A stretch of 64,000 nt of DNA, taken from NCBI GenBank assembly GCA_035389185.1, contig DAOORK010000001.1:257006-321005 (forward strand), written 5' to 3'. The position numbers were made by a program, and so were the translations under genes. The notes beneath the pieces were generated by a model. That model made no database searches, had not been told where the DNA came from, and saw only the letters and a list, made by a program, of their open reading frames with translations. Every line of letters starts with the position of its first letter. The stretch's first letter is position 1. This document shows positions 38,289 to 55,650 of this stretch, in pieces. The DNA comes from Candidatus Woesebacteria bacterium (GTDB lineage: Bacteria > Patescibacteriota > Microgenomatia > UBA1400 > MFAQ01).

Positions 38289-38294
38289 TGTATA

Positions 38295-39701: not shown

Positions 39702-39717
39702 CAGTTAAATTGTATAC

Positions 39718-41550
39718 TCAAATGGATATTTTTCTATTTGGTAATAACTTTTCTGGATGATAGATTGAGGAACACACTATACCGGCGACAATAAGGAAAT
39801 AAAAGACATACAGTTCAATAAACGATAATGTCGAAACAACTGTACCCTGTTGAGCAGGATTAGTATACGGATCACCAATAATTTGGATTATTGTTGACAT
39901 CCATAAAAAATATCCACAAACGGCAGACAGAAGGAGTAACTTTGGTTTGATTATTTCAACGACATAGATAAGTAAAATCGGAATTGAAAAATGATAAAGA
40001 AGGAAATAGGCCCCTCCATAATCAAAAAGTTGATTATATCGATTGAGGTAAAGTAACCAAAAAATTATTAGCGGGGAAATACCAAGTATGAGCCATTTTG
40101 TGTGTCGTTTGTTTGTTTTTTTTATCAAAAAGACAATACTGAGAAAAATAATTGGGGATAAATTCGATATCAGTGAAAATCTTATGAATTGATATTTTAA
40201 TTCATATGGTGTCAAGGTATTTTGGGGATCCACGCTTTTCTTCAATGGGTTTGGATATACCAGCTGTAATAGGTTTATAGATTTTGCTGAAAAAAACGAC
40301 TGGGTTTCTTTTGGATATTCTTGAAAATATACACTTTCTCGCTGATTTTGATTTGATGTAGGAGGTGCGGCTGTTGAAAACAATAGCCACACGATAAACG
40401 AAACCAATAACGGTGTAAACCATAGGAGAGACCTAAAAAATGACCCGAATGAAGACCATTTTCTTAATGAATACACTATCAACAGAGAGGCAGACAGGAT
40501 AACAGTATAAGGATGAATTAGAAATGACACAACCATCAAAAAAGATGCCAATATCGAGTTATTTCTTTTGACTTTATCGAACAATAGTGGAATGGCAATA
40601 ATTATTGGGTAAGCTGCAAAATATTTATAAAAAATTTCAGTGTTAAAAGATAGTTGTGACAATTGGACATTACCAAGTATCATGACAATTAAAAGGCACG
40701 CTTTTACTCTAGAAGATACCTGTGTAGTGACTAAATAAAAGAGACCCAAATAATAAAGTAAGGCAAGAACTTCAAGAAAACGCGCATAAACAAAATGTGA
40801 TTCGCCAAATATACTAATTATTGAGGAAGTAATAATCGGTAGTAGTGGGGTTCTTTCTCCAATTAACAAGTCATCTAAACGATCAAAATAATTCGTCTGA
40901 TCTCCATATTTTTGATTGTAGTAATAACGAGCAATTCTCCAGGGGTTAATACTGTCGGCAAAATACCCTGTATAGCCCGTCACCGGCACCGGAGTTGATG
41001 AATCAAGAAGATATCCTGTCGATGGCACACCGTAGTACTGGTCTCTTCTGTAAATCGAAATATTAATTATTGAAAGTGTTAGCAAACCGATAACAAAATA
41101 TTTTAAGAATAGTTTTGAATCTAAAAATAGACGGCGATATATAAAATAAATTAGTCCCAGAAAAGAAGTGACAAGTGATAGCTGAAGGAACAGCTCGTTT
41201 TTTGACCATAAATACAAAAGACCTTGAGCAAACAATAGTGTTATCGATGCAATCGGAGCCAAAATTATCTTACTCTCCTTAGAAATGTCGATTTTATTAA
41301 TTTTTATTAAATAATCTACAAGGGAATATCCTGGAAAAAATAGAAGGAAAAGATAGAAAAAATAATATAACCAGTACATCAGAAAGGAGTGTCCACGAAA
41401 ATGTACTATCTCCAGTTGAACAAGAAACGTATTAAAGAGAGTGGATCCGGAAAACAAACTTAAAACAAGAAATGAGAAAGTGATTAATAGGACGACAACA
41501 CCGATCGTTATCAGAATCTTTTTAAACGCTGGGTGCCCTTTCTTTTTCAT
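39718..41550 (-). CDS. Polytopic membrane protein of unknown function (possible GT-C-like)
   Basis: 610 aa; about 14 TM; loop with DRLDDLLIGERTPLLP acidic motif. Confidence 0.3.
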   Translation of the reverse strand: MKKKGHPAFKKILITIGVVVLLITFSFLVLSLFSGSTLFNTFLVQLEIVHFRGHSFLMYWLYYFFYLFLLFFPGYSLVDYLIKINKIDISKESKIILAPIASITLLFAQGLLYLWSKNELFLQLSLVTSFLGLIYFIYRRLFLDSKLFLKYFVIGLLTLSIINISIYRRDQYYGVPSTGYLLDSSTPVPVTGYTGYFADSINPWRIARYYYNQKYGDQTNYFDRLDDLLIGERTPLLPIITSSIISIFGESHFVYARFLEVLALLYYLGLFYLVTTQVSSRVKACLLIVMILGNVQLSQLSFNTEIFYKYFAAYPIIIAIPLLFDKVKRNNSILASFLMVVSFLIHPYTVILSASLLIVYSLRKWSSFGSFFRSLLWFTPLLVSFIVWLLFSTAAPPTSNQNQRESVYFQEYPKETQSFFSAKSINLLQLVYPNPLKKSVDPQNTLTPYELKYQFIRFSLISNLSPIIFLSIVFLIKKTNKRHTKWLILGISPLIIFWLLYLNRYNQLFDYGGAYFLLYHFSIPILLIYVVEIIKPKLLLLSAVCGYFLWMSTIIQIIGDPYTNPAQQGTVVSTLSFIELYVFYFLIVAGIVCSSIYHPEKLLPNRKISI

Positions 41551-41636
41551 ATCAATTTATGATGATTATTAAGTATAATGGAAAACTGTATGAATATACG
41601 CACTGAGGATGTTTTTATAATAAACAAATATCTAGC

Positions 41637-42368
41637 ATGCAAATAGTAGAGAAAAAATTAGGCATTTCACCAGATTACCAATATCGTGCCATGACTCAGT
41701 CATCGTGGATAAAGAGAAACTGGCACCAAAATAAGTTTGATATTGTAAGACAAATTCATAAATTCAATAAGAATGAAGAGATATTGGATCTAGGAACCGG
41801 TTCTGGAAATTTCGAACTGATATTTGCCCGTTCCGTAAAACACATATACGGAGTTGACTATAACGATGACGCCTTATCATTTTTAGATAAATTGCTAACA
41901 AAAAAGAGAATTAAAAATGTAACCTTAGAGTGTTCCGACATGAGGAAATTATCATCAAAACTAAATCGGAAAAAGTACAATTTGATTGTTTCTATCGACA
42001 CAATTGAACATGTTTCAAAAAAAGATGGAGCCAAAATTGTTGAATGGTCAAAAAATCGATTAAAAAAGAATGGACGATTAATTATTATCACTCCAAATTA
42101 TGAAAGTGTGTGGGTATTTTTAGAGAAAATCCTCGATTTTCTATCATTCACACCCAAAATGGGACGCCACCAACACATGTCAAAATATTCAGTTAGTAGC
42201 ATGAGAAAAATGCTTTTGGAACATGGGTTTAGCGTTAACAAGGAAATAACTTTTAATTTGTTTTCGTTCATTCTTCCAAATAAAATTAACCAAAACCTGT
42301 TAAGAATTGAGGGGAAGTTGCACCATAATCGAGGGTGTTTAATGGCAGTTGAGGCTATAAACAAATAA
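41637..42368 (+). CDS. Class I SAM-dependent methyltransferase
   Basis: 243 aa; ILDLGTGSGNF motif I, IVSIDTIEHV. The only plus-strand gene within the low-GC block. Confidence 0.65.
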   Translation: MQIVEKKLGISPDYQYRAMTQSSWIKRNWHQNKFDIVRQIHKFNKNEEILDLGTGSGNFELIFARSVKHIYGVDYNDDALSFLDKLLTKKRIKNVTLECSDMRKLSSKLNRKKYNLIVSIDTIEHVSKKDGAKIVEWSKNRLKKNGRLIIITPNYESVWVFLEKILDFLSFTPKMGRHQHMSKYSVSSMRKMLLEHGFSVNKEITFNLFSFILPNKINQNLLRIEGKLHHNRGCLMAVEAINK

Positions 42369-42407
42369 CAATATTTTCTTGAACTTGGATGTAGACGGCT
42401 GTAATGT

Positions 42408-43421
42408 TTATTTACGTCTGCTACTTAAGTCCGAAATCAGCATTTCGACTGTCACTTTTTTATTTTTCCGGGAATTACTACTTAAAAAGTGTACTATCGT
42501 GGAAATAACAAATAATACGAATGACCAAATGGCGGCCTTTTCAGCATAGTTTTGCAGATTTAGCAGACTTAATAGTGATGTGATTGTCAATAACATAATT
42601 GAAAAAACTAATACTACCTTTCCATCAATCTTAAATTTCAATATTGTAAGAAACCACAAAAGAATAACCGGTAACGAATCTTTCATTAGGTAGTCTTTAA
42701 AGACAATTATTTCAAGAATACTTGTAAAAAAACATATACCCAGGAAAATAAGATAATTATTTCGTCCAAAATATACAAATATCGAATATAGCAAAAATGG
42801 TAAGAACGAGCTTAGAAATAGGGCAACTAAATAAGTGTCAGCAACAATATTCCATACTTTATGTATTAAAAACCAGGTAAGGTTATTGATGTTTTTATAG
42901 ATATATTCTTTTGTGAAAACATATTTAGTGGAGATTACCGGCTTTTCGCTATCAATTACAATTCCAGTTATTTCTTCTCCGTTTTGAGACTCAATTTCAA
43001 ATTGGTATGTTTTCCCTTGAGAGTCATTGATTACCGGAAACCCGAAAGGAAATAATTCGTGAGGCTGAAATTGATCAGTATTATATTTTGCACTGTAAAT
43101 CCAATTTTCTGCCCCTGATTCTCTTATTCTAAAAATAACAACGTCGATACTGTCTCTTCCCTTATTGTCGAATCTAACAAAAACTGTTCCGAGATTATTA
43201 TATTGAGAAACAAACTCTCCTTTAGCAATATTCCCTCTCAGCATCATCTTCCCCACTCTATCTATTTTTGACTGATTATTGTTTGTACTCAATAAATAAA
43301 AAATACCTCGGCCCCCTGTTTGGATAGAGTTTGTGAAACTGAAGACCCCATAAAGCACCAAAATGACAGGAAAAATAAAATACAAAACTAAATTACTCAT
43401 TTGGATTAGAATCTTATTCAT
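42408..43421 (-). CDS. Membrane protein of unknown function (N-terminal TM, about 150 aa extracytoplasmic beta-rich domain, 4 C-terminal TM)
   Basis: 337 aa ORF, 8-nt overlap with the upstream gene. Confidence 0.3.
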   Translation of the reverse strand: MNKILIQMSNLVLYFIFPVILVLYGVFSFTNSIQTGGRGIFYLLSTNNNQSKIDRVGKMMLRGNIAKGEFVSQYNNLGTVFVRFDNKGRDSIDVVIFRIRESGAENWIYSAKYNTDQFQPHELFPFGFPVINDSQGKTYQFEIESQNGEEITGIVIDSEKPVISTKYVFTKEYIYKNINNLTWFLIHKVWNIVADTYLVALFLSSFLPFLLYSIFVYFGRNNYLIFLGICFFTSILEIIVFKDYLMKDSLPVILLWFLTILKFKIDGKVVLVFSIMLLTITSLLSLLNLQNYAEKAAIWSFVLFVISTIVHFLSSNSRKNKKVTVEMLISDLSSRRK

Positions 43422-45684
43422 TTTTCCTTTTTAAATAATCAACAAATAAATATATCAAACTCCCAGTCATTACTAGGACGCTTATTATTAACCCAACAAA
43501 ATAATAACTTTGAGGTTGAAACTCAATTTCTATGTATAAGTTTTCCGACAAATAATCTGGATTATTCTCTTTTAATTGACGTAACAAATCGTCGGAATTA
43601 ATTATCCAGCCGTTTGCATATCCGTTAACGAGTATGTGTTCATTTTCGGGTAAATAATCTTTTCTAAACCAATTGCTTGGTTGAACCTGAGAAGAACGGG
43701 AATCGGACTTTGAATGAATATATAGTTTCCACCCTTTATCGTAATTTTCTGAGTTAATTAGTAAATACTTTCCACTGGCTTTATTTATATTGACTCTATA
43801 TAAAGTTGGATTGACTTTAACAAAACTGATATTATCTTCCTTTATCAAATCACTTAATAATGAATTGTCAAAAACATTATCTCGAAGCTGAATAAAGCTA
43901 TCGTAGTTATTTTTTTTCGATAAATCTTTTACAATAATATCCAAGCTATCTTCAGACAAATATGGGTTACTGGAAAGATATATTATTGGTTTTGCAGTTT
44001 TATTTTGATAGAGTGAAAGTTCGTTTGAATATCTCTTTTCCAATGTAAGAGTCGCTGACATAGAGGCAAGGCTGGCGTGAATCAACTCGTTTGTCCACTT
44101 ATCCATTGATTTTCCAATAAACATAGGAAGTCTCGATTTGAAATCATCTCTCATGACGATATTTTCTATCCCAAGAAAATTCATTAGGACCCTACTTTCT
44201 TCATAATTATCCGGTTCATATATTTTTTCAAAGAGAGCTTTTTCTACCTGATTTGACGGATTGTTGCCAATGTAGTATTTGGGGTTGCCGAACATTAAGG
44301 GATCATTCCCAGCAAATTTACTGTCTTGATAGGACATGGGTTGGCTTGCAGGAAGCCAAAAGATTTTCCCTGTTGATTCGTTATTAGTTAAATCGTTAAG
44401 TAAATATTGGTAACCGGTGTTTAGCACGTATGTTTGCACTCCATAGTTGTAATTTCCTGAGATAAAGGGGTACATGCCATACAAAACCAAAACGGTCGTT
44501 CCAATATAGATGATCTTGCTTTTAAACGATTGTAAAAACGAAGATAACAAAATCGAAAAAGAAAGACTTGTTAAAACAGTTATGTACTGAATATTTCTAA
44601 AGGCAGCGATATAAAACGTAAACTTTTGATAAATAAACTCATTCAAAAAACCAAATGGAGGATTAACACCCTTGAACAATAATAGAGAGATAACAATTGT
44701 TAGACATAAAGTCTTGATTATTATTGGATTTTTTTTACCAAAAATTCCCATGCCGATTAAGGCGATAAGGGCGTATTTCGCAGAGATAAAAACCGATACA
44801 AACGGTAAGGGAATTGAGGCTAGATAATATTTGTATCCAGCGCCATCAAGCAAATAGGCAAGATACATCTTTGGACTAATGTAAGTATTCCAATTGATGG
44901 CATTTTCGGTAATTGTCTTTGCAGTTTGACCAATCTGACTTAATAGGAGCAAAACAAACTGAGCAGACAAAAGCAAGGTAATAATATAAACAAAAAATAT
45001 TTTGGCTATTCGCCGAAATGATTGACTGATATTTCTTGATGAGACAAGGTCTACAAAAAGAAAAATAAACACAAAGGTGGAGACAATGTGTAAATAATTA
45101 TCTTGACTTAGGATCAATCGAAACAAGAACGAACATATTATGGTGTTTCTAACTATTCGATTGTCTGAATTGCACAATTCAAATAGCTGTCTAATCAATA
45201 AGGGAAGTAAGGCGAAACTTAACAAAAATACCAGGTATCCAGACACGACAGCGTTGAAAACGATTGGTACCGACATATAAAATAATCCGGACATTAATGA
45301 GGGAAAGAGGTCGTATTTTAGGTATTTGCTCAATAGATACATCGAATAACCGGCGAGTGAAATCGTCGATATAATCATTAATTTTGAGAGATCACCGCCA
45401 TCAAAACCAAATGATTTTGAAAAAAAGCCAAATATTATCCCCGGTATTTCTCCTAAGTTGCGATATAGAACGACTCCATTTAACCAAGAGGTGAGAAATC
45501 GTGTACCAATTATTTGATTTTGAACTGGATAGTATGAAATTGACCAGTCATCACGCAAGCCAAGGGCTCCAGGCGTATTTAACATGCTCCTGTTCGCAAA
45601 TATACTTATTAATAAGAAAATAACAGGAGGAAGAATAATTTTTATCACTTTTCTTAGAGATTTTGAGGAGTGATAGTTTTTCAT
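43414..45684 (-). CDS. Large YfhO-like/GT-C-type polytopic membrane protein (putative glycopolymer glycosyltransferase)
   Basis: 756 aa; about 13 TM N-terminal region, about 300 aa extracytoplasmic domain and a final C-terminal TM. C-terminal GWKLYIHSK...ILVNGYANGWII resembles the GW..VDG / VNG..G pattern recalled for YfhO-family proteins. Tentative. Confidence 0.35.
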   Translation of the reverse strand: MKNYHSSKSLRKVIKIILPPVIFLLISIFANRSMLNTPGALGLRDDWSISYYPVQNQIIGTRFLTSWLNGVVLYRNLGEIPGIIFGFFSKSFGFDGGDLSKLMIISTISLAGYSMYLLSKYLKYDLFPSLMSGLFYMSVPIVFNAVVSGYLVFLLSFALLPLLIRQLFELCNSDNRIVRNTIICSFLFRLILSQDNYLHIVSTFVFIFLFVDLVSSRNISQSFRRIAKIFFVYIITLLLSAQFVLLLLSQIGQTAKTITENAINWNTYISPKMYLAYLLDGAGYKYYLASIPLPFVSVFISAKYALIALIGMGIFGKKNPIIIKTLCLTIVISLLLFKGVNPPFGFLNEFIYQKFTFYIAAFRNIQYITVLTSLSFSILLSSFLQSFKSKIIYIGTTVLVLYGMYPFISGNYNYGVQTYVLNTGYQYLLNDLTNNESTGKIFWLPASQPMSYQDSKFAGNDPLMFGNPKYYIGNNPSNQVEKALFEKIYEPDNYEESRVLMNFLGIENIVMRDDFKSRLPMFIGKSMDKWTNELIHASLASMSATLTLEKRYSNELSLYQNKTAKPIIYLSSNPYLSEDSLDIIVKDLSKKNNYDSFIQLRDNVFDNSLLSDLIKEDNISFVKVNPTLYRVNINKASGKYLLINSENYDKGWKLYIHSKSDSRSSQVQPSNWFRKDYLPENEHILVNGYANGWIINSDDLLRQLKENNPDYLSENLYIEIEFQPQSYYFVGLIISVLVMTGSLIYLFVDYLKRKNE

Positions 45685-45701
45685 GAATGGCCTTCGGTTA
45701 A

Positions 45702-46685
45702 TCAGTTAACGATACAGGAAATGATATTTTTGATAATTTTTGTGTAGGACATAGAATCCTTTACTATTAATTCATTTAATTTATTATTCGGATTGATACA
45801 TTTTAATGTATAGCAGGATAGTAGCGTCCCTGATGAACTAGAGTCGTCAGGATATAAAACAATCTTATTACATCTTGATGACGATATTAAATCGCACAAA
45901 CCACTTCTTATTGAAACAAAGTGACCAGCTAAGTCCAAAAATGGAACAGTGCTTGTTAGTGGGATGCTAAGGTTAATCGCTCCTTCATGTTTAAAATTGA
46001 TTCCGTTAATCACTACAGAGTAACCTAAGGAAATAAGGGCGTCAACAAGTTTATGCCATATTTTGTTGTTGATTATTTTGATTGAGTTCGCTTCTGGAGC
46101 AATCAAGACTGTCTTATGGTGTTTTAATTTGTGTTGATAAAATAGTTTTTCTGATGTTTTTATAGCGATATTTGGGATAAACGGCTCAATTATTGGCACG
46201 TCATTTGATAAAGACAGCATATTTTTATATACATCATAAATATTAGAATTTATACCCATACTTTGGAGATCATTATTGTTTATAAAATATGGGTGCGCGA
46301 TAGCAACCTTGTTAATTGCTAAGGTTGAATAGTTTTTTGAAAATTTTTTAAGCAAAAAAAGGAATGCGTTACCTGGCATGTCGGCAACAATAATTTTCTT
46401 TTTTATATTTGGAAATAATTTTGGGATCTCTTTATGAGTTGGCTTAACGACAATTACAACTGACTTAATATTATTTTCATCCAAAAAATACTTAAGATGC
46501 GCACATAGATTATAAGTATCTCCAATTCCATAAGCGCAGATAAGACCGATTTGATTATTTTTTAATTTAATTTTATTTAATATTTTTTTCCACCTGAAAT
46601 AGCCGAATAATAATGACCTCGTTTGATTAATTAGTTTAGGAATTGACATATTTCTTGGCTTGTATGTTTTACTTTCGGATTTCAA
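45702..46685 (-). CDS. GT9-like (heptosyltransferase-fold) glycosyltransferase
   Basis: 327 aa; N-terminal ICAYGIGDTYNLCAHLKYF (cf. GT9 RLSALGDVLhtlPal) and C-terminal DLAGHFVSIRSGLCDL (cf. NDSGpmHLAAAL); very low GC. Confidence 0.35.
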   Translation of the reverse strand: MKSESKTYKPRNMSIPKLINQTRSLLFGYFRWKKILNKIKLKNNQIGLICAYGIGDTYNLCAHLKYFLDENNIKSVVIVVKPTHKEIPKLFPNIKKKIIVADMPGNAFLFLLKKFSKNYSTLAINKVAIAHPYFINNNDLQSMGINSNIYDVYKNMLSLSNDVPIIEPFIPNIAIKTSEKLFYQHKLKHHKTVLIAPEANSIKIINNKIWHKLVDALISLGYSVVINGINFKHEGAINLSIPLTSTVPFLDLAGHFVSIRSGLCDLISSSRCNKIVLYPDDSSSSGTLLSCYTLKCINPNNKLNELIVKDSMSYTKIIKNIISCIVN

Positions 46686-47409
46686 TTACCAAATCTCTAT
46701 AGAAAAAATTTCCAATTCTTGGAATACCACCAAGCCGTGAAAACAATATGACAAAAATATTACTACTAAGGTTTTTCAATATTACATTGTACTTCCTAAC
46801 TCCTACTCTTTTTAGTAAATTGCTCATATACTCTTTTGACCACTTATAGTAATGCTCGTCATGGAATATTCGACCAGATCCAATTAATCTAAAAATAATG
46901 TCTCCAAACCACTCAGAATTATCTGTAACTATTTCAATTTTCCCTTTGGAAATTTTCACAATATTCTGAATGAATTCTGCAGGGTTAATCATGTGTTCAA
47001 TACTGTAATTACTTAATACAATATCAATACTTTCTTTTCTAAATGGTAGGAATGCTGCGTTTGCAAGAATAAAATTTTCCGGTATTCTCTTGGGTATATA
47101 GCAGTCAAGATTGATATTCCCCCTTGGGTTTTCACCACATCCAACATCAAGAATCAATTTTCGTTTTTCTTTGTATCTTACAAACGGTTTCCCCGACATC
47201 TTTATTAAAATTTTGCCCTTTAGTCCACGAAATCCTCTTTTCCAATTTTCTTCAATCAAAAAATTTGGGACGTTATGACCTTTAATATTTATGATCGGGT
47301 ATTTACGCCCGCAAGTATTACACACAAAGATATCTGGCTTGTCGAATTTTAAACAATCATCTTGACATAAAGGACAGGCAAGCACTTTATAGTAATCCAT
47401 ATTTTTCAA
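46669..47409 (-). CDS. SAM-dependent methyltransferase with N-terminal Trm112-like zinc ribbon
   Basis: 246 aa; LACPLCQDDC...CNTCGRKYPIINIK zinc-ribbon followed by LDVGCGENP motif I. Confidence 0.6.
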   Translation of the reverse strand: MKNMDYYKVLACPLCQDDCLKFDKPDIFVCNTCGRKYPIINIKGHNVPNFLIEENWKRGFRGLKGKILIKMSGKPFVRYKEKRKLILDVGCGENPRGNINLDCYIPKRIPENFILANAAFLPFRKESIDIVLSNYSIEHMINPAEFIQNIVKISKGKIEIVTDNSEWFGDIIFRLIGSGRIFHDEHYYKWSKEYMSNLLKRVGVRKYNVILKNLSSNIFVILFSRLGGIPRIGNFFYRDLVIEIRK

Positions 47410-48538
47410 TTAAATTTAATTCTGTTTTTGCAATATCTTCCCAGGAATATTTCTTTATAAAATTTGCTCCTTGTCTCCCGATTCTAACTCGATCCCTTTT
47501 CGAATTTAAATATTCAATTACTGTAGCGGAAAATTTCTTTGTATTACCTAAGGGTATCGAAATGTTTTTACCTTCAAATACTTCCTTGTATACCGGTAAA
47601 TCCCACGATATTACTGGTAGTCCACAAGCCATTGCTTCGGCAATAACAATCCCAAACCCTTCTTCGTGCGATGGAAATACAAATATTTTTGCTGATTTTA
47701 ATGTTGGATATATATCTTCATTACGTAAATATCCAAAAAACTTAATGTTCTTTTTAATGTTGTATTTTTCTATTGTATCTTTAAGTTTGTTGATATTATT
47801 GATGTCTCCTCCGCCGATAATTGCAAGTTTTGCATTGGGAATCGTATCAATAACAGTTTTCCAAATCTCCGGAAGGTCGAATACACCTTTTGAAGGATTA
47901 ATTCTTCCCAAATATATCGCGTCCCATACCTGATTTTTTATCTTCTTGACTTCTTGAATCCTTTCGTAATCAATGCCGACAGGATTAATAAATATTTTTT
48001 GTGAATCAATACCGGAATCACATAATGCGACTCCAGTTGCCTTATTAATATTTATTACGATGTTGGCCTTTCTAATTAGCATTAGACTTATTCTCTGCGA
48101 CAATTGTGCCATCAAATTTATGATTTTATTACCTGGCCTAACACGCCAATCTTGATAAATATGAAAAACGCACTGAACCCATTTTATCTTCGGGCGTAAT
48201 AGTTTTAGTACAAAGGCAGGAATAACGTCCGGAAAGAAATCTGAGTTTGAATAAACAACATCGATATTTTTATTTGGGAGATGAAACAAAACGTATGCTG
48301 TACGCAGTAAATAACTAATACCCGCACCAAATCTATCGAAAATTGTTGGGGTAATTATATATTTAAACTTAATTTTGTATGTTTCATCGAGGTTCCTTCC
48401 ATCTTTATTTGTGATAATTACTCCATCAAAATTATTTTGAATTCTGCTAAATATCTCGACGAATCTTGTTTCTCCACCACTGGTTTTTGTGTTTTTTCCC
48501 CAGAAACTATTTTGAAAGATTATTACACTTTTTTTCAT
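47387..48538 (-). CDS. Glycosyltransferase family 4
   Basis: 383 aa; EGFGIVIAEAMACGLPVIS GT4 motif. Confidence 0.65.
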   Translation of the reverse strand: MKKSVIIFQNSFWGKNTKTSGGETRFVEIFSRIQNNFDGVIITNKDGRNLDETYKIKFKYIITPTIFDRFGAGISYLLRTAYVLFHLPNKNIDVVYSNSDFFPDVIPAFVLKLLRPKIKWVQCVFHIYQDWRVRPGNKIINLMAQLSQRISLMLIRKANIVININKATGVALCDSGIDSQKIFINPVGIDYERIQEVKKIKNQVWDAIYLGRINPSKGVFDLPEIWKTVIDTIPNAKLAIIGGGDINNINKLKDTIEKYNIKKNIKFFGYLRNEDIYPTLKSAKIFVFPSHEEGFGIVIAEAMACGLPVISWDLPVYKEVFEGKNISIPLGNTKKFSATVIEYLNSKRDRVRIGRQGANFIKKYSWEDIAKTELNLIEKYGLL

Positions 48539-48544
48539 TTTTTC

Positions 48545-50167
48545 TTAAGAAATTAGAATCGAAACTTTTAATAAGAATCTGTTTAGCAATTCTGGTTTTA
48601 GTATTATCACAACACCATGATGTCTATTCCTTACCATTTTTTTTATGATCTCATAGGTGCACTTATTATTTGTGTTTACAATGACTGATAACCTTTGTCT
48701 TTCATAAACCGGATAATCGTTGATATCGTTTCCAAAATGAATCGTTTCGGAATCTGATATTTTTTTATTGTTATCTTTTAAGACCTTTTTGACACCTAAA
48801 TATTTATTTGTTTTAGATGAAACGATATTCAAGTATCCTTCATTAATTTCGCAAAATAGCCCAATTTCTAAAAATTGTTTTCTGTAGTTTTTTAGGTTTT
48901 GCCGATTATGTTTTAACACCAATTTATTTATTCCTCCTAATTGAATTATTTTTAAATACGACTCCAACTTATCGCAGAAATATGACTGTGGATATTTGTC
49001 TTTAAAATGTCTTATCTGATTCCTGTCATTGGAATAGAAAACATAATTGAGGATATTTATTCTTGTCTTATTGTCAATTTTTATTTCACTTGAAGGGTAA
49101 TGTGCTATTACAATTACTTTATCCCCAATATTTCTTAGCAAACTTATAATTTGAACAAATGACTTTTTCTCAACAGGAATGTTGTGAATGATATTTTCGA
49201 CTTTAAGATTACTAATATTAGTATTTTTATCCAAGATTATTGCACCTTCGTTTAATACTGAAGGAAGAGTGAATAGGTCAGATACTTTATTCACCTCTTT
49301 GTCACATCTTTTTTTAATTTTTTGTATAAAACTACTAGGTCCTGCCCCGGTGACTACGATTGTGTCTGAATTTGTTTTTCTGATTGATCTGATACCTTTT
49401 AGTGGAAATTTATTATTGTTAATTATCGTTCCATCGAGATCAAAACTTAAAAGCTTAATATTTTGGAATAGATTTTTCTTTTGATTCAGAGTTCTAGTAA
49501 TTCCTTCAATTGAATCAACAAACAAGGTTTCCAATCCGCAATAATTTCCCTGTTTCTCGAGACAAGATGCCCCAATAGCACCGCCCGGATGATTTCTTAA
49601 AAAGTCTTTAAGCCTTATAGGAAATAGCTCAATGATTGACATAGCAAGTGATTGTAAATACATTAAAAAGGCTATCGTTGAATTGTTCGGGACAAGATTC
49701 CACGGATCTCCCTCATTTGGAATATTTAACACTACTTTCTGATCGACAAGATTTGCAGATCCCGATTCTGATGAACAGGTTAATAACCAAATTTCACAGT
49801 TACGTTTTTTTAGCTGATTGAGGAGCAAAATTGTTTCAGATGTATTTCCGCTTTTCGAGATGACTATGACCAGATCACCATCATGAACTGCTCCTAAATC
49901 ACCATGAATTGCACTGTTTGTATGCAAAAAATTTGCCCTTAATCCGAATGATGTTAACGAGCCAACAAATTTTTCACAAACAGGTACGTTTTTCCCTAAG
50001 CCAGATACAATTACCGATTTGTTGCTCTTTAGAGCATTAATACATTGTTTCAGTAATATATTTGAGTCTTTTTTCTTAAGCTGATTTTGACAATAGGACA
50101 AAGAATTAATTTGTTGAGAAAAATGCCAGTCAATTATTCCGCTTAATTTATTCTTAAGAGGTTTCAT
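48545..50167 (-). CDS. Bifunctional fusion: KdsD/KpsF-like arabinose-5-phosphate-isomerase SIS domain (no CBS pair) fused to a Cof-type (HAD-IIB) sugar-phosphate phosphatase
   Basis: 540 aa. Residues about 50-215 align with the KdsD SIS domain (SGLGKN, HGDLG, VISKSGNTSE, HPGGAIG). Residues about 230-540 carry HAD motifs I (LLSFDLDGTII) and IV (HFGNDINDYPV) with an intervening cap, like Cof/YidA. Confidence 0.65.
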   Translation of the reverse strand: MKPLKNKLSGIIDWHFSQQINSLSYCQNQLKKKDSNILLKQCINALKSNKSVIVSGLGKNVPVCEKFVGSLTSFGLRANFLHTNSAIHGDLGAVHDGDLVIVISKSGNTSETILLLNQLKKRNCEIWLLTCSSESGSANLVDQKVVLNIPNEGDPWNLVPNNSTIAFLMYLQSLAMSIIELFPIRLKDFLRNHPGGAIGASCLEKQGNYCGLETLFVDSIEGITRTLNQKKNLFQNIKLLSFDLDGTIINNNKFPLKGIRSIRKTNSDTIVVTGAGPSSFIQKIKKRCDKEVNKVSDLFTLPSVLNEGAIILDKNTNISNLKVENIIHNIPVEKKSFVQIISLLRNIGDKVIVIAHYPSSEIKIDNKTRINILNYVFYSNDRNQIRHFKDKYPQSYFCDKLESYLKIIQLGGINKLVLKHNRQNLKNYRKQFLEIGLFCEINEGYLNIVSSKTNKYLGVKKVLKDNNKKISDSETIHFGNDINDYPVYERQRLSVIVNTNNKCTYEIIKKMVRNRHHGVVIILKPELLNRFLLKVSILIS

Positions 50168-51684
50168 AAATCATCTTCTAAAATATCATTAATCAGATAT
50201 ACCCCTTTATAAAAGGCGCCGCATATTGAATCATAATTATCCCACGTGTATGAAGTAAGTGATAACCAAATTATTGCGTGTATTATTTTGATTTTTCTTA
50301 TATCTCTGTTAATTAGTTTAAAAAATTGTTTTTCTAGTTTATGCCAACCACTTGATGATATTTTTATAGAAATATTATTATCATCAATTGTTAACCTAAA
50401 ATTTTTTCTGTTGAACTGGTCGTAGTCTCCGATAATTGAATAATATAGTTTTGCCCAATCATAGTCTTCATCTCCAAATAATATTTCTTTCCCGAAGTAA
50501 CCTCTTGGATCAATAAAAACAATTCTTGAATCTGATGAAAAGATTATATTTGAGAACGTTATATCTCCATGAATAACCTTGTAATCGTTCGAATAGTAAG
50601 GTTTTATTAGATCTTCGACAATTTTGAAGTTTTTGTACACATTGATGCATTTTTTCCCGTTTATCATAATATAGTCCTGATCAATCAAAGGAATTAAACT
50701 GGCGATCTTTGTCATCCTTTCCTTAGTCTTTGAAAGAAATGCTATGTCATTATTTTGGTGATAATCTTGCTTTTTGGTTGGTTTAATTACATGTATTGTC
50801 CTTATTTGTTCAATAATTTTTTTCAAAATATTATTTTTTTCTCTTAAACTCATTCGCATCTCATAGAGAGGTTTCCCATTAATAAATTTCATTGTTAATG
50901 GGTCGTAGGATAGAATCCGAGGAAGAAAATCAATTTTGTATGATTCCAGCGATTGATACCATTTTTTTTCAAGTAATGCCAAATCCATCCCTTGTTTATT
51001 TACTGGAATTTTTTTAAGTATGCCCTTTTCTACTTCAATACGATTGAAAGCTCGGGAAACTAAACTAGCGTTACAAAATTTTGAGTATTTATGTAGCGTT
51101 CCGATTTCTTTTATACCTTCTGGATAAAACTGAACCATTGCAACTCTGTCATTTCTGAGAAATTTGCAAAACTCCGTTTCGTTAGGAATATTTGATAACG
51201 CTTTTTTGTCTTTAAAAACGAACAATCCGATTATTCCTCTTCTTTTACTCGGTTGCTCAACAGGTAAACCTCTTTGGAAACTCCATCGACATTTAAACTG
51301 ATTGGAAAGCCCAATGTAGTTCGTAGACGAAGATAGTTTATTTATAAAATTGGCATTTTCCAAATACAGATCACACCAAATTAGCAAAAAGGGGGTTTTT
51401 GATGGTATTTTCCTCAGACACTGTTTTATTCCACCGCCATCAAATTTGTAATGAGTTTTTACTATTTCATAATTATCTGTTGGAGAATAGATTGAAAGAT
51501 ATTTTTTAAGTAAGTCACTCTTATAATCGGAAATTATCAGAATTTTTGCTTTAGGAAATAATTTTATTGTCCTAATAATTAAGGGTTCGTTATTGATGGA
51601 AATAAGTGCTTTGGGTTTATTTGCTGTCAAATAGCCCATTCTATTACCCCTTCCCCCCGCTTGAATTATGACGTATTTAACCAT
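50164..51684 (-). CDS. Bifunctional fusion: N-terminal sugar/phospho-alcohol nucleotidyltransferase (LicC/RmlA-like) plus C-terminal APH/choline-kinase-fold kinase (LicA/AmgK-like)
   Basis: 506 aa. N-terminal VIIQAGGRGNRMGYLTANKPKALISINNEPLI (G-G-x-G-x-R plus KPKAL, very similar to the LicC N-terminus). C-terminal VIHGDITFSNIIF...VFIDPRGYFG...DEDYDWAKL (catalytic HGD..N loop and IDxE/DW motif of APH/ChoK-like kinases). Confidence 0.65.
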   Translation of the reverse strand: MVKYVIIQAGGRGNRMGYLTANKPKALISINNEPLIIRTIKLFPKAKILIISDYKSDLLKKYLSIYSPTDNYEIVKTHYKFDGGGIKQCLRKIPSKTPFLLIWCDLYLENANFINKLSSSTNYIGLSNQFKCRWSFQRGLPVEQPSKRRGIIGLFVFKDKKALSNIPNETEFCKFLRNDRVAMVQFYPEGIKEIGTLHKYSKFCNASLVSRAFNRIEVEKGILKKIPVNKQGMDLALLEKKWYQSLESYKIDFLPRILSYDPLTMKFINGKPLYEMRMSLREKNNILKKIIEQIRTIHVIKPTKKQDYHQNNDIAFLSKTKERMTKIASLIPLIDQDYIMINGKKCINVYKNFKIVEDLIKPYYSNDYKVIHGDITFSNIIFSSDSRIVFIDPRGYFGKEILFGDEDYDWAKLYYSIIGDYDQFNRKNFRLTIDDNNISIKISSSGWHKLEKQFFKLINRDIRKIKIIHAIIWLSLTSYTWDNYDSICGAFYKGVYLINDILEDDL

Positions 51685-52369
51685 TCTTTAATTTTAGAAA
51701 TAAGGTTGACCAACCTTTATTTTTGTTAAAGTCTTTGTCGTTTTTGCTCATAAAATATCCTTCTAGCATCGGTTTTGATCTAAATACCCATTTAGAAATA
51801 TATAAATTTAACATACTAAATTGTTCCCACCAGCTACCTCTTGTTATTATCTTTTTAATTATAAAATTTGTTTCGTTTACAATCTTTTTAAGCTTCTTTG
51901 AAGAATAATGGCGGTGGCCTACTAACCACCAGGCTGGGTCGAGAACACAAGACCAAAATGACTGATTTGGTGTTGAAATATATAAAACTCCTCCTTTTTT
52001 TAGGACTCTTGAAGCTTCTTTGAAAAAAATGTTTTCTGTCCCCTTTGGTATGTGCTCGAGTACTTCCCAACACACTACAGTATCGAATGATTTCATTGTA
52101 AAGGGAATTTTGATGGCGCTTCCAATTTTAAAACCGATTTCTCTGCATTTTATCGTTTTTGCTGTTTTTAAATCGTTTTTGCTAATCTCCATACCAATAA
52201 TTTTTTTTACACCTTGATTTTTTGCCCACAATTCGAACCATCCGAAGCCGCATCCAACATTAAGTACTTTTTTATTTTTGATATCTTTCTTTTCAACAAA
52301 CTTATTCACGGTAAATAACGTTCGACCAGACAACTTCATGTATGGTGTTTGATTAAGCAAGTTTTTCAT
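51677..52369 (-). CDS. Class I SAM-dependent methyltransferase
   Basis: 230 aa; VLNVGCGFGWF motif I, VVCWEVLEHI, GGVLYISTPN. Confidence 0.6.
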   Translation of the reverse strand: MKNLLNQTPYMKLSGRTLFTVNKFVEKKDIKNKKVLNVGCGFGWFELWAKNQGVKKIIGMEISKNDLKTAKTIKCREIGFKIGSAIKIPFTMKSFDTVVCWEVLEHIPKGTENIFFKEASRVLKKGGVLYISTPNQSFWSCVLDPAWWLVGHRHYSSKKLKKIVNETNFIIKKIITRGSWWEQFSMLNLYISKWVFRSKPMLEGYFMSKNDKDFNKNKGWSTLFLKLKNG

Positions 52370-53217
52370 TTATTTTGAAAAATATAGGAAAGCCAGGTAA
52401 TAAATCTAATGCTATACATACTTATTGCTAGTATCGGATGAGCAACAAGTTTTTTCCATTTATCGTTCTCGACGTATACGACTACTGACCTATACCAAAG
52501 ACCTAACTGTTTCGTGACATCCTTATCATCCTTTCCCCATTTGTTCACATAGCTATCAAAGGTTTTAACATATTTTTTCTTTTTTCTTAAAAAGGTTTTT
52601 AAATCGAGTAACTCTTCGTGGTGATATATGCCTTTTTGGGTGATTGAAATTTTATTTGTTTGTTTTTTAATTGTTTTTGTTAAATCCCAGTCGTCAGCAC
52701 CAAACATAATATTTTTTTCGTCATAACCACCAATTTTTTTAAACAAAGTTCGGTTTACTACTCTTATGGCATCAACAGGGGTTTTATTATAAAAGCTTCG
52801 TTCAAAGTTTCTAACTTTTCCAAAATATCCGTTTCCCTTGATGGTTTCAGGAATATAAAGGGCGTCAAACCTGTTCATTTTTTGGGATATTTCCTGAAAG
52901 AGTCCTTTATCGAAAGTCATGTCGGCATCGGGAAAGAAAATTATTTCTCCTGTGGATTTTTTTAAACCCTGATTTACTTGGGCGCCACGAAAATTTTTCG
53001 TTTTATTGCCGATTACAACATCGAACACATTTTTTGTATATTTGAGAGCAATCTTTTTTGTGTCGTCATTGGAATGATTATCTACGACAATAATTTCTAT
53101 ATTTTTTCGAGGAAATTTTTGCTCTTTAATTGACTGTAGGCAATTCCCAATATGATTTTCTTCGTTTTTTGTAGCTACAATTGCGGTAATCTTCATAAGA
53201 GTTATCTTGAATGCCAA
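52366..53217 (-). CDS. Glycosyltransferase family 2
   Basis: 283 aa; ITAIVATKNEENHI...IIVVDNHSNDDT...FFPDADM. Confidence 0.65.
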   Translation of the reverse strand: MAFKITLMKITAIVATKNEENHIGNCLQSIKEQKFPRKNIEIIVVDNHSNDDTKKIALKYTKNVFDVVIGNKTKNFRGAQVNQGLKKSTGEIIFFPDADMTFDKGLFQEISQKMNRFDALYIPETIKGNGYFGKVRNFERSFYNKTPVDAIRVVNRTLFKKIGGYDEKNIMFGADDWDLTKTIKKQTNKISITQKGIYHHEELLDLKTFLRKKKKYVKTFDSYVNKWGKDDKDVTKQLGLWYRSVVVYVENDKWKKLVAHPILAISMYSIRFITWLSYIFQNK

Positions 53218-54179
53218 TTCCAGGCGTCCTTGATGATATCATCGATATTATATTTACTTTTCCATTTTAAAATTTTGTTAGCCTTCGATGGATCGGCCAC
53301 CAGTATTGGTGGATCACCGACCCTTTGCTTCTCTTTGATTACAGCGAATTTTGATTGATATTTTTTTACTTTATCAACGATCTCCTTAACTGATGTTCCG
53401 ATTCCAGTCCCAATATTAAAGAAATTTGTGCCTGTTTTTTTGTTCATGTACTGAAGAGCTTTCAGATGAGCATCCGCTAAATCGAGGACGTGAACATAAT
53501 CACGAATACAAGTACCGTCGGGAGTAGAATAATTATTTCCAAAGATACTAATTGATTTTCTTTTCTTTTGGGCAGCACTTATTACCAATGGAATAAGATG
53601 AGTTTCAGGATTGTGTGATTCTCCAATTTCAAAACCTGCCCCAGCTGCATTAAAATATCTCAGTCTAACGGAATTCACTTTGTATATTTGCCAATACCAT
53701 TCGAGGATTTTCTCGAACATCAGTTTACTTTCCCCATACGGATTGATGGGAGAATTTGGCTGATCTTCTGTTATAGGAGTAGTCTTTGGTGTGCCATATA
53801 CAGCGCAACTTGAAGAAAATACAATTTTTTTACATCCGTTTGCTACCATTGCTTCGAGTAGATTAACACCTCCTTGAATATTATTTTCAAAATACTTTCC
53901 AGGATTTTCCATTGATTCGCCGACAAAAGCATATGCTGCGAAATGAATTACCGAATCAATCTTGTGTTCCTTGAATATTTTAGCGACTGTTTTTTTGTTT
54001 AACAAATCTCCTTTTACAAAAACTACTCCTTTGGGTAAATATGACTTATGTCCATAAATCAAATTATCAACTACAACAATATTTTTTGGGTCAATTCCCT
54101 GATTAACAAAGTAATGAACTGTGTGAGAACCTATGTAGCCAGCTCCTCCTGTTATTAATATTTTTTTATCGTTATTCAT
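53202..54179 (-). CDS. UDP-hexose 4-epimerase (GalE-family SDR), second copy
   Basis: 325 aa; ILITGGAGYIGSH, YGESK, LRYFNAAGA; paralogue of 29021..30004 but in the low-GC block. Confidence 0.75.
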   Translation of the reverse strand: MNNDKKILITGGAGYIGSHTVHYFVNQGIDPKNIVVVDNLIYGHKSYLPKGVVFVKGDLLNKKTVAKIFKEHKIDSVIHFAAYAFVGESMENPGKYFENNIQGGVNLLEAMVANGCKKIVFSSSCAVYGTPKTTPITEDQPNSPINPYGESKLMFEKILEWYWQIYKVNSVRLRYFNAAGAGFEIGESHNPETHLIPLVISAAQKKRKSISIFGNNYSTPDGTCIRDYVHVLDLADAHLKALQYMNKKTGTNFFNIGTGIGTSVKEIVDKVKKYQSKFAVIKEKQRVGDPPILVADPSKANKILKWKSKYNIDDIIKDAWNWHSR

Positions 54180-54192
54180 TGTTTATCTTTTA

Positions 54193-55650
54193 TTAGGAAA
54201 AATCTGTAAGATGCCCGATAACCTTACCGGCGGCTCGGAAAAGGAATTTGACATCATCGATATTTCTAATTGAGGTGATCTTTTTGATAATGAATTTTGG
54301 AGTAATAAATGAACGATAGAGGTCTTGGGTAAGTTCTTTTACTTGGGTACTGGTGAGAGGACATTTCATCACTTGTTCTCTTTGATCAAAACGGTCGTAA
54401 TCAGTAAAGTTTAAAAGATCATTTTCCAAGCAGAATTTATAAAGAGGAGTACCGGGATAAGGAATAAGAATGGTGGCTTGAAGAGTGTCCACAAACCCAT
54501 TTTTAAATAACTTTTTGGACAGATTGACTGTTCTCTGGGCATCTTTGTAGGTTTCCCAAGGATAACCGATCATTGTCGTGATATGGGGCTCAAGACCAGC
54601 CTCTTTGCACATCTTTAGACCAGGAGCAATCTCTTTTACTTTTAGATTTTTATTGATCTTGTCGAGAGTCTTCTGGTTTGCTGATTCCAATCCAAAGAGA
54701 ATAAATCTGAATCCGGCCTTTTTCATTAGCTGCCAAGTTTCCGGTTTACGAATACCGGTGATGCGCATATTACAGCTCATGACAATTTTTTTGTTGTACC
54801 CGCGATCGATCATTCCCTGACAAAAATCAATTAGCCACTTGCCTATTGGGAGACTGCCCGAGTCTTCCATAATCTCTTTGACGCCGAGATCGATTAACTG
54901 GCCAACTTCATCTAAGGCTAGTTTGGCCGATCGAGTACGGAATTTGTTTCCGGGAAAAAGTGTTGTCCAAGAACAAAAAGCACATTTACCCCACCAACAG
55001 TCCCGACCAGACATCATATAAGCACCTGGAGTGTGTTTGAAGTTGCCATTTTTGTAAGCGTAGTTTTGCCATTTTGTGAGTCGACGATCGATCATTGGAA
55101 GTTCATCTAGGGCGTGAGAGTGCGGGTCGTAGACTCCGGTATTTTTTATTGTTTTTCCGTCTTTGTACCAGACACCGCCAGAAAAGTCTCCTTTGCGATT
55201 TAGCTTGGCCACGATTGAAGCAAGAATAAAATCGTAATCTCCCCCAGCAATGACATAATCAACCTTTGAATTCTCAAATGTCTCTTGGGGAAGAGCGGTT
55301 ACGTGATCCCCCATTAATACAATTTTTGATTTGGGAAGTTTCTTCTTTAGCTCGTTAACAATCAGCCAATGGCGTTTTACTACCGGAGTTTTTGTTTCAA
55401 AAACGATCAGATCAGGATGTCTTTTGACAGTTCTCTTGAACCACTGGACATAGGTCAGTTCTTCGGCAATGCCATCGTCCCAGTAGACTTTGTAGCCTTG
55501 CGACTTGAGTAAAGTAGCTGCATATGCGGGAATAACCGGATAGATGAAGGTTGGGCTGGTAAACCATTGGAACTGTCTGTTTTGGGATAGAAGAGGTGTT
55601 CCCTTTTCAGACTCAAGTGGTGGGTAACTAATAGAAATTGTTTTTATCAT
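54193..55650 (-). CDS. B12-binding-domain radical SAM protein (class B-like) with an unusual CX4CX2C cluster motif
   Basis: 485 aa. N-terminal Rossmann-like cobalamin-binding-type region (KIVLMGDHVTALP, DYVIAGGDYDF), then GRDCWWGKCAFCSW Cys triad, then TIM-barrel-like region (RFILFGLESANQKTLDKINK). The canonical motif would be CX3CX2C. Confidence 0.55.
   Translation of the reverse strand: MIKTISISYPPLESEKGTPLLSQNRQFQWFTSPTFIYPVIPAYAATLLKSQGYKVYWDDGIAEELTYVQWFKRTVKRHPDLIVFETKTPVVKRHWLIVNELKKKLPKSKIVLMGDHVTALPQETFENSKVDYVIAGGDYDFILASIVAKLNRKGDFSGGVWYKDGKTIKNTGVYDPHSHALDELPMIDRRLTKWQNYAYKNGNFKHTPGAYMMSGRDCWWGKCAFCSWTTLFPGNKFRTRSAKLALDEVGQLIDLGVKEIMEDSGSLPIGKWLIDFCQGMIDRGYNKKIVMSCNMRITGIRKPETWQLMKKAGFRFILFGLESANQKTLDKINKNLKVKEIAPGLKMCKEAGLEPHITTMIGYPWETYKDAQRTVNLSKKLFKNGFVDTLQATILIPYPGTPLYKFCLENDLLNFTDYDRFDQREQVMKCPLTSTQVKELTQDLYRSFITPKFIIKKITSIRNIDDVKFLFRAAGKVIGHLTDFS

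Follow-up and report, generated by a model that had tools for sequence, protein, structure and literature searches.

The window analysed here is a stretch of 64,000 nucleotides from the genome of a Candidatus Woesebacteria bacterium (assembly GCA_035389185.1, contig DAOORK010000001.1, positions 257,006 to 321,005), and its minus strand encodes two adjoining fusion proteins that are predicted to supply a nucleoside diphosphate (NDP)-activated D-arabinose. One of them joins an isomerase domain of the SIS family to a phosphatase domain of the HAD-IIB type, and the other joins a nucleotidyltransferase to a kinase of the APH fold, the two genes overlapping by 4 nt. The features concerned, along with a candidate partner glycosyltransferase (GT), are as follows.

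48545..50167, minus strand: SIS-HAD-IIB fusion protein, 540 aa; predicted arabinose-5-phosphate isomerase and sugar-bisphosphate 5-phosphatase
49538..50167, minus strand: KpsF/KdsD-like SIS domain without the CBS pair, approximately residues 1-210
48548..49462, minus strand: Cof-type HAD-IIB phosphatase domain, approximately residues 236-540, with DLDGT, TGAG, K and the variant motif IV GNDIND
50164..51684, minus strand: nucleotidyltransferase/APH-fold kinase, 506 aa; predicted cellular homologue of the phage AfhE-type arabinose-5-phosphate 1-kinase/NDP-arabinose pyrophosphorylase
51085..51684, minus strand: nucleotidyltransferase domain, approximately residues 1-200, with GGRGNR and PK motifs
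50167..51072, minus strand: APH-fold kinase domain, approximately residues 205-506, with HGDxxxxN and IDPRG motifs
45702..46685, minus strand: GT9-like glycosyltransferase of GT-B fold, 327 aa, no Pfam match; candidate transferase for the NDP-sugar

Both fusion genes lie at the positions given in the original prediction, on the minus strand, with the methyltransferase and GT2 genes following in coordinate order, and every motif quoted there is present (HGDLG, SKSGNTSE, HPGGAIG, DLDGT, GNDIND, GGRGNRMG, KPKAL, HGD..N, IDPRG and DWAKL). Its four domain assignments also held, with Pfam matches to SIS, Hydrolase_3 and NTP_transf_3, and with APH recognised at the family level.

The 506-aa protein matches Pfam NTP_transf_3 at residues 5-120 (40.4 bits), while its match to APH is sub-threshold (17.8 bits); the APH assignment is nevertheless secure for the family as a whole, 9 of 11 aligned homologues having a match to APH (best E 3.8e-08). 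The most extensive similarity of this protein is to a family of phage proteins. The profile phrog_4098 covers residues 3-503 with its positions 2-503 of 559 (210 bits, E 8e-62), and tblastn retrieved 355 phage records, 326 of which had at least 80% query coverage. In BLASTP, residues 2-502 align with gp76 of Acinetobacter phage Meroveus (E 2e-31), and the kinase half encoded by RB69 gp52 is matched at E 2e-23. In RB69-like and Acinetobacter phages the homologue is encoded between the genes of an arabinose-5-phosphate isomerase and a phosphatase of ∼125 aa. Alignment of cellular and phage members revealed G11, R15, P24, K25, W103 and D105 of the nucleotidyltransferase and H372, G373, D374, N379 and I391-G395 (IDPRG) of the kinase to be invariant, the phage protein included.

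A word-seeded search gave 2,790 relatives of the nucleotidyltransferase-kinase, the best at 40-50% identity, and a scan of one genome per species located relatives in at least 586 genomes. The carriers include Akkermansia, Lachnospiraceae, Oscillospiraceae, Alphaproteobacteria, Gammaproteobacteria and Saccharibacteria, as well as Paceibacterota, Treponema, Elusimicrobium, Myxococcota and Thermotogota. In the public annotation the window protein (P0121) has 491 aa, which covers 97% of the open reading frame (ORF) and is 15 residues short of its 506 aa. If the missing residues are N-terminal, as seems likely, this call starts at an internal Met and loses the conserved GGRGNR loop; the homologues favour the 506-aa ORF starting at 51684 (region 51640-51684).

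The phage relatives belong to a pathway with a described product. D-arabinofuranosyl-5-hydroxycytosine occurs in the DNA of RB69 and DLP3, and synthesis of NDP-D-arabinofuranose (NDP-D-Araf) from ribulose-5-phosphate has been assigned to RB69 gp55, gp52:53 and gp51, and to DLP3 gp83, gp82 and gp81 (PMC13326640, Nucleic Acids Res 2026). As summarised in that paper, which cites He et al. (Nat Chem Biol 2026) and Mahler et al. (Cell Host Microbe 2025), AfhE of phage HY126 acts both as a D-arabinose-5-phosphate kinase, forming Araf-1,5-bisphosphate, and as a UDP-D-arabinose pyrophosphorylase, the Mg-dependent phosphatase AfhF forms Araf-1-phosphate, the nucleotide used is UTP, and the steps run in the order isomerase, kinase, phosphatase, nucleotidyltransferase. 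The chemistry itself is already described for phages (2025-2026), although the original prediction had taken the pathway to be undescribed. Its proposal that ribulose-5-phosphate is converted through arabinose-5-phosphate to NDP-D-arabinose is supported by the full-length homology to the AfhE family, as that family is summarised in PMC13326640.

The window resembles the phage pathway in carrying the nucleotidyltransferase at the N-terminus and the APH-fold kinase at the C-terminus of one polypeptide, with full-length homology and invariant motifs, in its KpsF-like SIS isomerase without CBS domains, in requiring a phosphatase of the HAD superfamily, and in the same inferred chemistry from ribulose-5-phosphate to NDP-D-Araf. 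The two differ in their setting, which is a DNA-modification cluster in the phages and a surface-glycan locus in the window, where neither a thymidylate-synthase-like hydroxylase nor a DNA glycosyltransferase occurs. They also differ in the phosphatase, a free capless HAD protein of ∼125 aa in the phages as against a capped HAD-IIB domain of ∼300 aa fused to the isomerase in the window, and in the transferase, which is GT4-like in the phages and GT9-like in the window.

In the SIS domain of the 540-aa protein, residues 46-175 match Pfam SIS (60.8 bits, E 1.6e-16). KpsF/GutQ (TIGR00393, 113 bits) ranks first in NCBIfam, followed by GutQ and KdsD, with HxlB far behind (35 bits) and no match to GmhA or MurQ, which bears out the KdsD-type assignment of the original prediction. 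The profile phrog_5670, annotated as 'arabinose 5-phosphate isomerase', also matches the domain (111 bits). Alignment with KdsD of E. coli (2xhz) is in register and free of gaps over residues 46-179, and K59, H88, E111, E152 and H193, which we take from the KdsD literature to be the catalytic residues, are all present and are all invariant between the window protein and its counterpart of the same architecture, P0002. The score to TIGR00393 lies below its cutoff of 203.7, the match covering positions 3-157 of 268 only, and no CBS match was obtained in the 540-aa protein, as had been predicted. However, the best PDB match of the domain is 5uqi (78 bits), presumably c3406, the single-domain arabinose-5-phosphate isomerase of E. 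coli CFT073, and both c3406 and the Bacteroides fragilis protein 3etn are active without CBS domains. The absence of CBS and the low score therefore exclude the canonical two-domain subfamily only. As compared to the KdsD, GutQ and KpsF isomerases, the window domain keeps the register and the catalytic residues, and it lacks CBS like c3406 and 3etn, but it is fused to a phosphatase and its arabinose-5-phosphate would not serve the synthesis of 3-deoxy-D-manno-octulosonic acid (Kdo). KdsA, KdsB and LicD gave no match among the 59 window ORFs scanned, in agreement with the earlier statement that this is not the Kdo pathway.

Among database sequences, the SIS domain is closest (45-54% identity) to the C-terminal SIS domain of triple fusions of ∼700 aa, in which nucleotidyltransferase, kinase and SIS follow one another, found in Lachnospiraceae, Acetatifactor and Schwartzia. 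Such fusion is direct evidence that the functions of the SIS domain and of the nucleotidyltransferase-kinase belong together.

Co-occurrence was counted in 80 genome loci carrying a relative of the nucleotidyltransferase-kinase. A KpsF-like SIS gene adjoins it in 49 loci, a conserved protein of ∼123 aa with the motifs DxDGT, LT(A/S)R and NDxKP is encoded in 66, and a homologue of the window ORF 45702-46685 in 62. The ∼123-aa protein is a capless HAD, whose alignment to RB69 gp51 and Meroveus gp75 (18-22% identity) agrees motif for motif. The state of fusion varies among the loci; in Schwartzia the triple fusion is followed by a HAD protein of 124 aa, and elsewhere the nucleotidyltransferase-kinase, the SIS protein and the 123-aa protein are encoded by separate genes. 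The association of the nucleotidyltransferase-kinase with SIS is thus recurrent. A HAD-IIB domain of the window type is found in 0/80 loci.

The loci in which the SIS gene is missing provide an independent argument for the kinase substrate. When lineages were classified by hand, 28 of the 29 informative loci without a SIS gene came from lineages bearing lipopolysaccharide (LPS), with one unclassified exception; these lineages are Akkermansia, Alphaproteobacteria/Rhizobium, Enterobacteriaceae, Elusimicrobium, Syntrophotalea and Gastranaerophilales. Where a SIS gene is present (49 loci), the carriers are mostly Bacillota and bacteria of the candidate phyla radiation (CPR). LPS producers already make arabinose-5-phosphate via KdsD for Kdo, and the dispensability of the SIS gene in KdsD lineages points to arabinose-5-phosphate as the substrate of the kinase.

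Further arrangements are seen in individual loci. Five from Lachnospiraceae (L041, L048, L052, L078 and L082) contain the nucleotidyltransferase-kinase, SIS and GT9-like genes with no recognisable phosphatase, and in L041 the slot holds only an ORF of 160 aa (8062-8544) with no evident HAD motif; another protein may fill the phosphatase step in loci that bear SIS and lack the small phosphatase. Three human gut contigs (L012-L014, 4021-8943) carry, in this order, genes for the nucleotidyltransferase-kinase, proteins of 313 aa and 168 aa, and the GT9-like, SIS and small phosphatase proteins. The flanking genes encode a Wzm/Wzt ABC transporter, a pyruvyl transferase, Glf and a GlfT2-like protein, a set pointing to a furanose-rich polysaccharide. 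Synechococcus phage S-SRM01 (MW015081.1, L009 5411-7823) encodes a SIS protein, a small phosphatase of the kind found in cells, and a nucleotidyltransferase-kinase that shares 31% identity with the window protein. This trio is located inside an LPS-like auxiliary cluster with GDP-fucose genes and fucosyltransferases and not in a DNA-modification cluster, and S-SRM01 may connect the versions found in cells and in phages.

The phosphatase half of the SIS fusion is matched by Pfam Hydrolase_3 (Cof-type HAD) at residues 241-515 with 49.7 bits against a cutoff of 20.9. HAD motifs I (DLDGT), II (TGAG) and III (K) are canonical, and a C2B cap fold is found together with the HAD core, as is characteristic of Cof-type HAD-IIB proteins; the domain is confidently modelled as a Cof-type sugar phosphatase. 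It is rare, since a search of 1.84 billion representative proteins gave 13 relatives at E ≤ 0.001, and just two further examples of the SIS-HAD-IIB architecture were found, P0002 and a frameshifted gene in the locus L100. In both of these metagenomic cases the order of genes is nucleotidyltransferase-kinase, SIS-HAD-IIB and a GT9-like protein of ∼317 aa. When five cellular small phosphatases, that of S-SRM01 included, were used as tblastn queries against the window (the AfhF-type proteins of RB69 and Meroveus were not among them), nothing fell below E 0.1 except the DxDGT motif of HAD-IIB itself. The minimal phosphatase would thus appear to be displaced here by a different HAD subfamily, whose substrate we infer from the pathway. 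Two other HAD-IIB relatives were discarded as clues to context, P0252 since it sits among unrelated genes and is uninformative, and P0254 since its setting is not that of a glycan locus and its N-terminal part has no similarity to the window kinase. P0254 (L099, 240-2396) is a protein of 718 aa in which an N-terminal region with an APH-like HGDENPDN motif is fused to the HAD-IIB relative.

The product of ORF 45702-46685 matches no family in Pfam or NCBIfam, and its fold is GT9-like and heptosyltransferase-like. Its homologues recur beside the module, and it is likely to be an arabinosyltransferase. One such homologue (P0247) is present on ∼500 contigs, where its gene lies between that of the nucleotidyltransferase-kinase and those of SIS and the small phosphatase; the module is very common in gut samples.

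Taken on their sequences, the two fusion proteins are probably the cellular, glycan-locus version of the phage UDP-D-arabinofuranose pathway, with the order isomerase, kinase, phosphatase, nucleotidyltransferase and transfer by the GT9-like protein. In the first step the SIS domain would convert ribulose-5-phosphate to D-arabinose-5-phosphate, as suggested by homology and by the conserved catalytic residues. The APH-fold kinase, by its full-length homology to the phage AfhE type, would then phosphorylate C1 to give arabinofuranose-1,5-bisphosphate. The HAD-IIB domain fused to the isomerase is predicted from its fold and from the gene displacement to remove the 5-phosphate, leaving Araf-1-phosphate, which the N-terminal nucleotidyltransferase would join to an NTP to form NDP-D-arabinofuranose. 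The GT9-like transferase (45702-46685) would probably then add the sugar to the surface glycan of the locus of more than 50 kb in which these genes lie.

This order departs from the original prediction, which had placed the phosphatase between isomerase and kinase; the homologous phage kinase, as summarised in PMC13326640, uses arabinose-5-phosphate, and the phosphatase then acts on the 1,5-bisphosphate. It also replaces the likeness to trypanosomatid salvage of free arabinose, proposed at the same time, by the logic of the ADP-heptose pathway. In the ADP- and GDP-glycero-manno-heptose pathway (GmhA, HldE or HddA, GmhB and HddC), whose step logic is established, a ketose-phosphate isomerase, an anomeric kinase, a distal HAD phosphatase and a nucleotidyltransferase act likewise. 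Its HldE fuses kinase and nucleotidyltransferase as the window protein does, and its heptosyltransferases are of GT9, which the window partner resembles in fold. In keeping with this logic, HddC is the nearest solved structure to the nucleotidyltransferase domain of the window protein. The families nevertheless differ, since the heptose pathway employs a GmhA-type SIS, a PfkB or GHMP kinase and a GmhB-type HAD instead of the KdsD-type SIS, APH fold and HAD-IIB of the window, and GmhA, PfkB, GHMP and GmhB gave no Pfam or NCBIfam match in the window fusion proteins; the likeness is an analogy and implies no family membership. A heptose-like order, with the phosphatase acting after the kinase, would imply the furanose form of the sugar.

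In trypanosomatids, a bifunctional kinase and pyrophosphorylase also yields an NDP-D-arabinose, GDP-α-D-arabinopyranose (PMC11301363), but that enzyme has no homology to the window proteins. D-arabinofuranose also reaches surface glycans by the decaprenyl-phospho-D-arabinofuranose route from phosphoribosyl pyrophosphate, as in Mycobacterium and in Pseudomonas pilin glycosylation, yet this route uses a lipid-linked donor made via an epimerised ribose derivative and no nucleotide sugar, and its enzymes are not present in the window. The trypanosomatid arabino/fuco-kinase-pyrophosphorylase has a GHMP-fold kinase that acts on free D-arabinose, and its product is a pyranose.

Several points weigh against the proposed pathway. 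Motif IV of the HAD-IIB domain reads GNDIND (GNDxND) in place of the canonical GDxxND, the variant being found in 11 of 13 aligned family members. AfhF is of another HAD subfamily, and neither the substrate of the window domain nor the order of steps is therefore carried over by homology, and the fusion of isomerase and phosphatase could equally be read as two consecutive steps, with the phosphatase second. Identity to the phage proteins is just 24-31%, and the substrate specificity could differ accordingly. The SIS-only, KpsF-like protein 3fxa of Listeria is presumably an isomerase of glucose-6-phosphate and not of arabinose-5-phosphate, and we know of no D-arabinose-containing glycan from Woesebacteria. 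Finally, the biochemistry of AfhE and AfhF is taken second-hand, from the account in PMC13326640.

The low identity bears on a first alternative, in which the four-step logic is the same and the sugar is another, the SIS domain acting on a different ketose phosphate to give an NDP-hexose, an NDP-heptose or another NDP-pentose. Identity within the cellular clade is 40-50% as compared to 24-31% to the phage proteins, the partner transferase has a GT9-like fold resembling that of heptosyltransferases, the GDP-heptose enzyme HddC (5xhw) is what the nucleotidyltransferase domain matches best in the PDB, and KpsF-like SIS proteins are not all arabinose-5-phosphate isomerases. However, the SIS domain is of the KpsF/KdsD type with the KdsD catalytic residues in register and no GmhA match, the SIS gene is dispensable exactly where the lineage has KdsD, and the S-SRM01 copy, with the same trio of genes, is intermediate in identity (31%). 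A different sugar is on this evidence unlikely.

The subfamily of the phosphatase and its fusion to the isomerase bear on a second alternative, the order first proposed, in which SIS forms arabinose-5-phosphate, HAD-IIB releases free D-arabinose, the kinase acts at C1 and the nucleotidyltransferase yields NDP-D-arabinose, probably as the pyranose found in trypanosomatids. Sharing of one polypeptide is often a sign of consecutive steps, Cof-type HAD-IIB enzymes are typically phosphatases of sugar monophosphates, and nothing ties a HAD-IIB domain without subfamily-level homology to AfhF to a bisphosphate. Against this, the homologous phage kinase is reported, in the account of PMC13326640, to act on arabinose-5-phosphate and not on free arabinose. 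Fusions in pathways of this type also link steps that are not consecutive, as in the nucleotidyltransferase-kinase here and in the well-established HldE. Moreover, most loci encode the phosphatase separately, downstream of the nucleotidyltransferase-kinase, a SIS gene is missing altogether from some, and it would be wasteful to remove a phosphate and then spend ATP to restore one. A phosphatase acting second is accordingly unlikely.

It is very doubtful that the HAD-IIB domain is a phosphomutase converting arabinose-5-phosphate to arabinose-1-phosphate, with the kinase only supplying the bisphosphate cofactor, even though the eukaryotic phosphomannomutase it would resemble is also a HAD-IIB enzyme. 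Hardly credible, finally, is a LicC/LicA-like activation of phosphocholine or phosphoethanolamine with the methyltransferase as N-methylase, or an AmgK/MurU-like salvage of amino sugars, both offered as alternatives in the original prediction and, like a GmhA reading, rejected on family scores: the order of nucleotidyltransferase and APH kinase resembles LicC-LicA fusions, weak matches to LicC (1jyk, E 0.0025) and MurU are obtained and a methyltransferase is adjacent, but Choline_kinase is not matched by the window protein and only weakly by 2 of 11 homologues, the MurU score falls short of its cutoff (31 bits as against 250), neither LicD nor a choline transporter was found among the scanned window ORFs, the methyltransferase recurs in 0/80 loci, and the conserved SIS and HAD partners would be left unexplained.

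Around the fusion genes assigned here to a putative NDP-D-Araf pathway, the following genes stand upstream.

51677..52369, minus strand: class I methyltransferase (Methyltransf_11, 67 bits), same operon, locus neighbour
52366..53217, minus strand: GT2 glycosyltransferase (Glycos_transf_2, 89 bits), same operon, locus neighbour
53202-54179, minus strand: GalE, by family search

A GT4 and a second methyltransferase are encoded downstream. Adjacent genes overlap at their start and stop codons by 4-8 nt, in line with an operon, and from ∼36.6 kb rightwards every gene of the window lies on the minus strand. The methyltransferase (51677-52369), which the original prediction had counted as part of the pathway, has a relative in 0/80 loci and the GT2 in 9/80; both were rejected as members of the module on this co-occurrence and are taken as neighbours.

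The left end of the window holds the dcw cell-division cluster from MraZ to FtsA (0.2-9 kb), and directly after it, from ∼10.7 kb, extends the glycan locus of more than 50 kb (10700-64000). It encodes an initiating Bac_transf protein, ManC, more than 15 GT2 and GT4 proteins, Wzy_C and Wzx, and also two PMT_2 proteins of GT-C type, a GDP-mannose dehydratase, four methyltransferases and a B12-radical SAM enzyme. On a contig of only 905 kb, a locus of this size represents a considerable outlay for a CPR bacterium with its reduced genome. The B12-binding radical SAM enzyme (485 aa, 54193-55650, minus strand) is encoded amid glycosyltransferases and may have a tailoring function, such as C-methylation of a sugar. 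An Rfam scan of the window returned nothing.

The GC content is 0.31-0.34 at 38000-54000 as compared to 0.37-0.44 in the flanks, and the GC skew is negative over 46-54 kb with gene orientation unchanged there. The segment with the arabinose module may have entered the glycan locus by horizontal transfer, or may be a variable part of it. Downstream of the module, two hydrophobic, apparently membrane proteins without Pfam match are encoded on the minus strand, one of 756 aa (43414-45684) and one of 337 aa (42408-43421), whose relatives occur in 0/80 genome loci. In the P0002 contig the corresponding position is taken by a gene of unknown function for 750 aa. These two proteins could be a lineage-specific polymerase or a GT-C-like enzyme.

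Bacterial D-arabinofuranose is linked in textbooks to the lipid donor decaprenyl-phospho-arabinose of mycobacteria and of Pseudomonas pilin, and to our knowledge a nucleotide-sugar route to D-Araf has been shown only recently and only in phages that decorate their DNA. A search of the open-access literature for a cellular NDP-D-arabinose route gave only plant UDP-L-Araf and the phage work. What appears to be new is that the module occurs, and so broadly, in glycan loci of cells, that it has a GT9-like partner, and that in the window a SIS-HAD-IIB fusion takes the place of the minimal phosphatase. The chances are about even that cytoplasmic NDP-D-Araf is, beyond this window, a widespread and hitherto unrecognised building block of cellular surface glycans in hundreds of species, among them Akkermansia, Lachnospiraceae, Oscillospiraceae, Alphaproteobacteria, Saccharibacteria and Woesebacteria. 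Under the same evenly balanced proposal, it is made by a heptose-like route and transferred by new GT9-like arabinofuranosyltransferases, the phages captured the pathway from cells, and the HAD-IIB domain of Woesebacteria is an independent solution.

If this is true, the pathway would explain the dedicated arabinose-5-phosphate isomerases of bacteria without Kdo, of which the Clostridium tetani enzyme is one, and the phage pathway would gain an evolutionary source. A new family of GT9-like transferases and a set of enzymes for the synthesis of a D-Araf donor would also become available. The SIS-HAD-IIB fusion, provided that the cellular chemistry is as proposed, would indicate that a different HAD subfamily can fill the phosphatase step. 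NDP-D-Araf would then be a common donor for the surface glycans of gut commensals and candidate-phylum bacteria.

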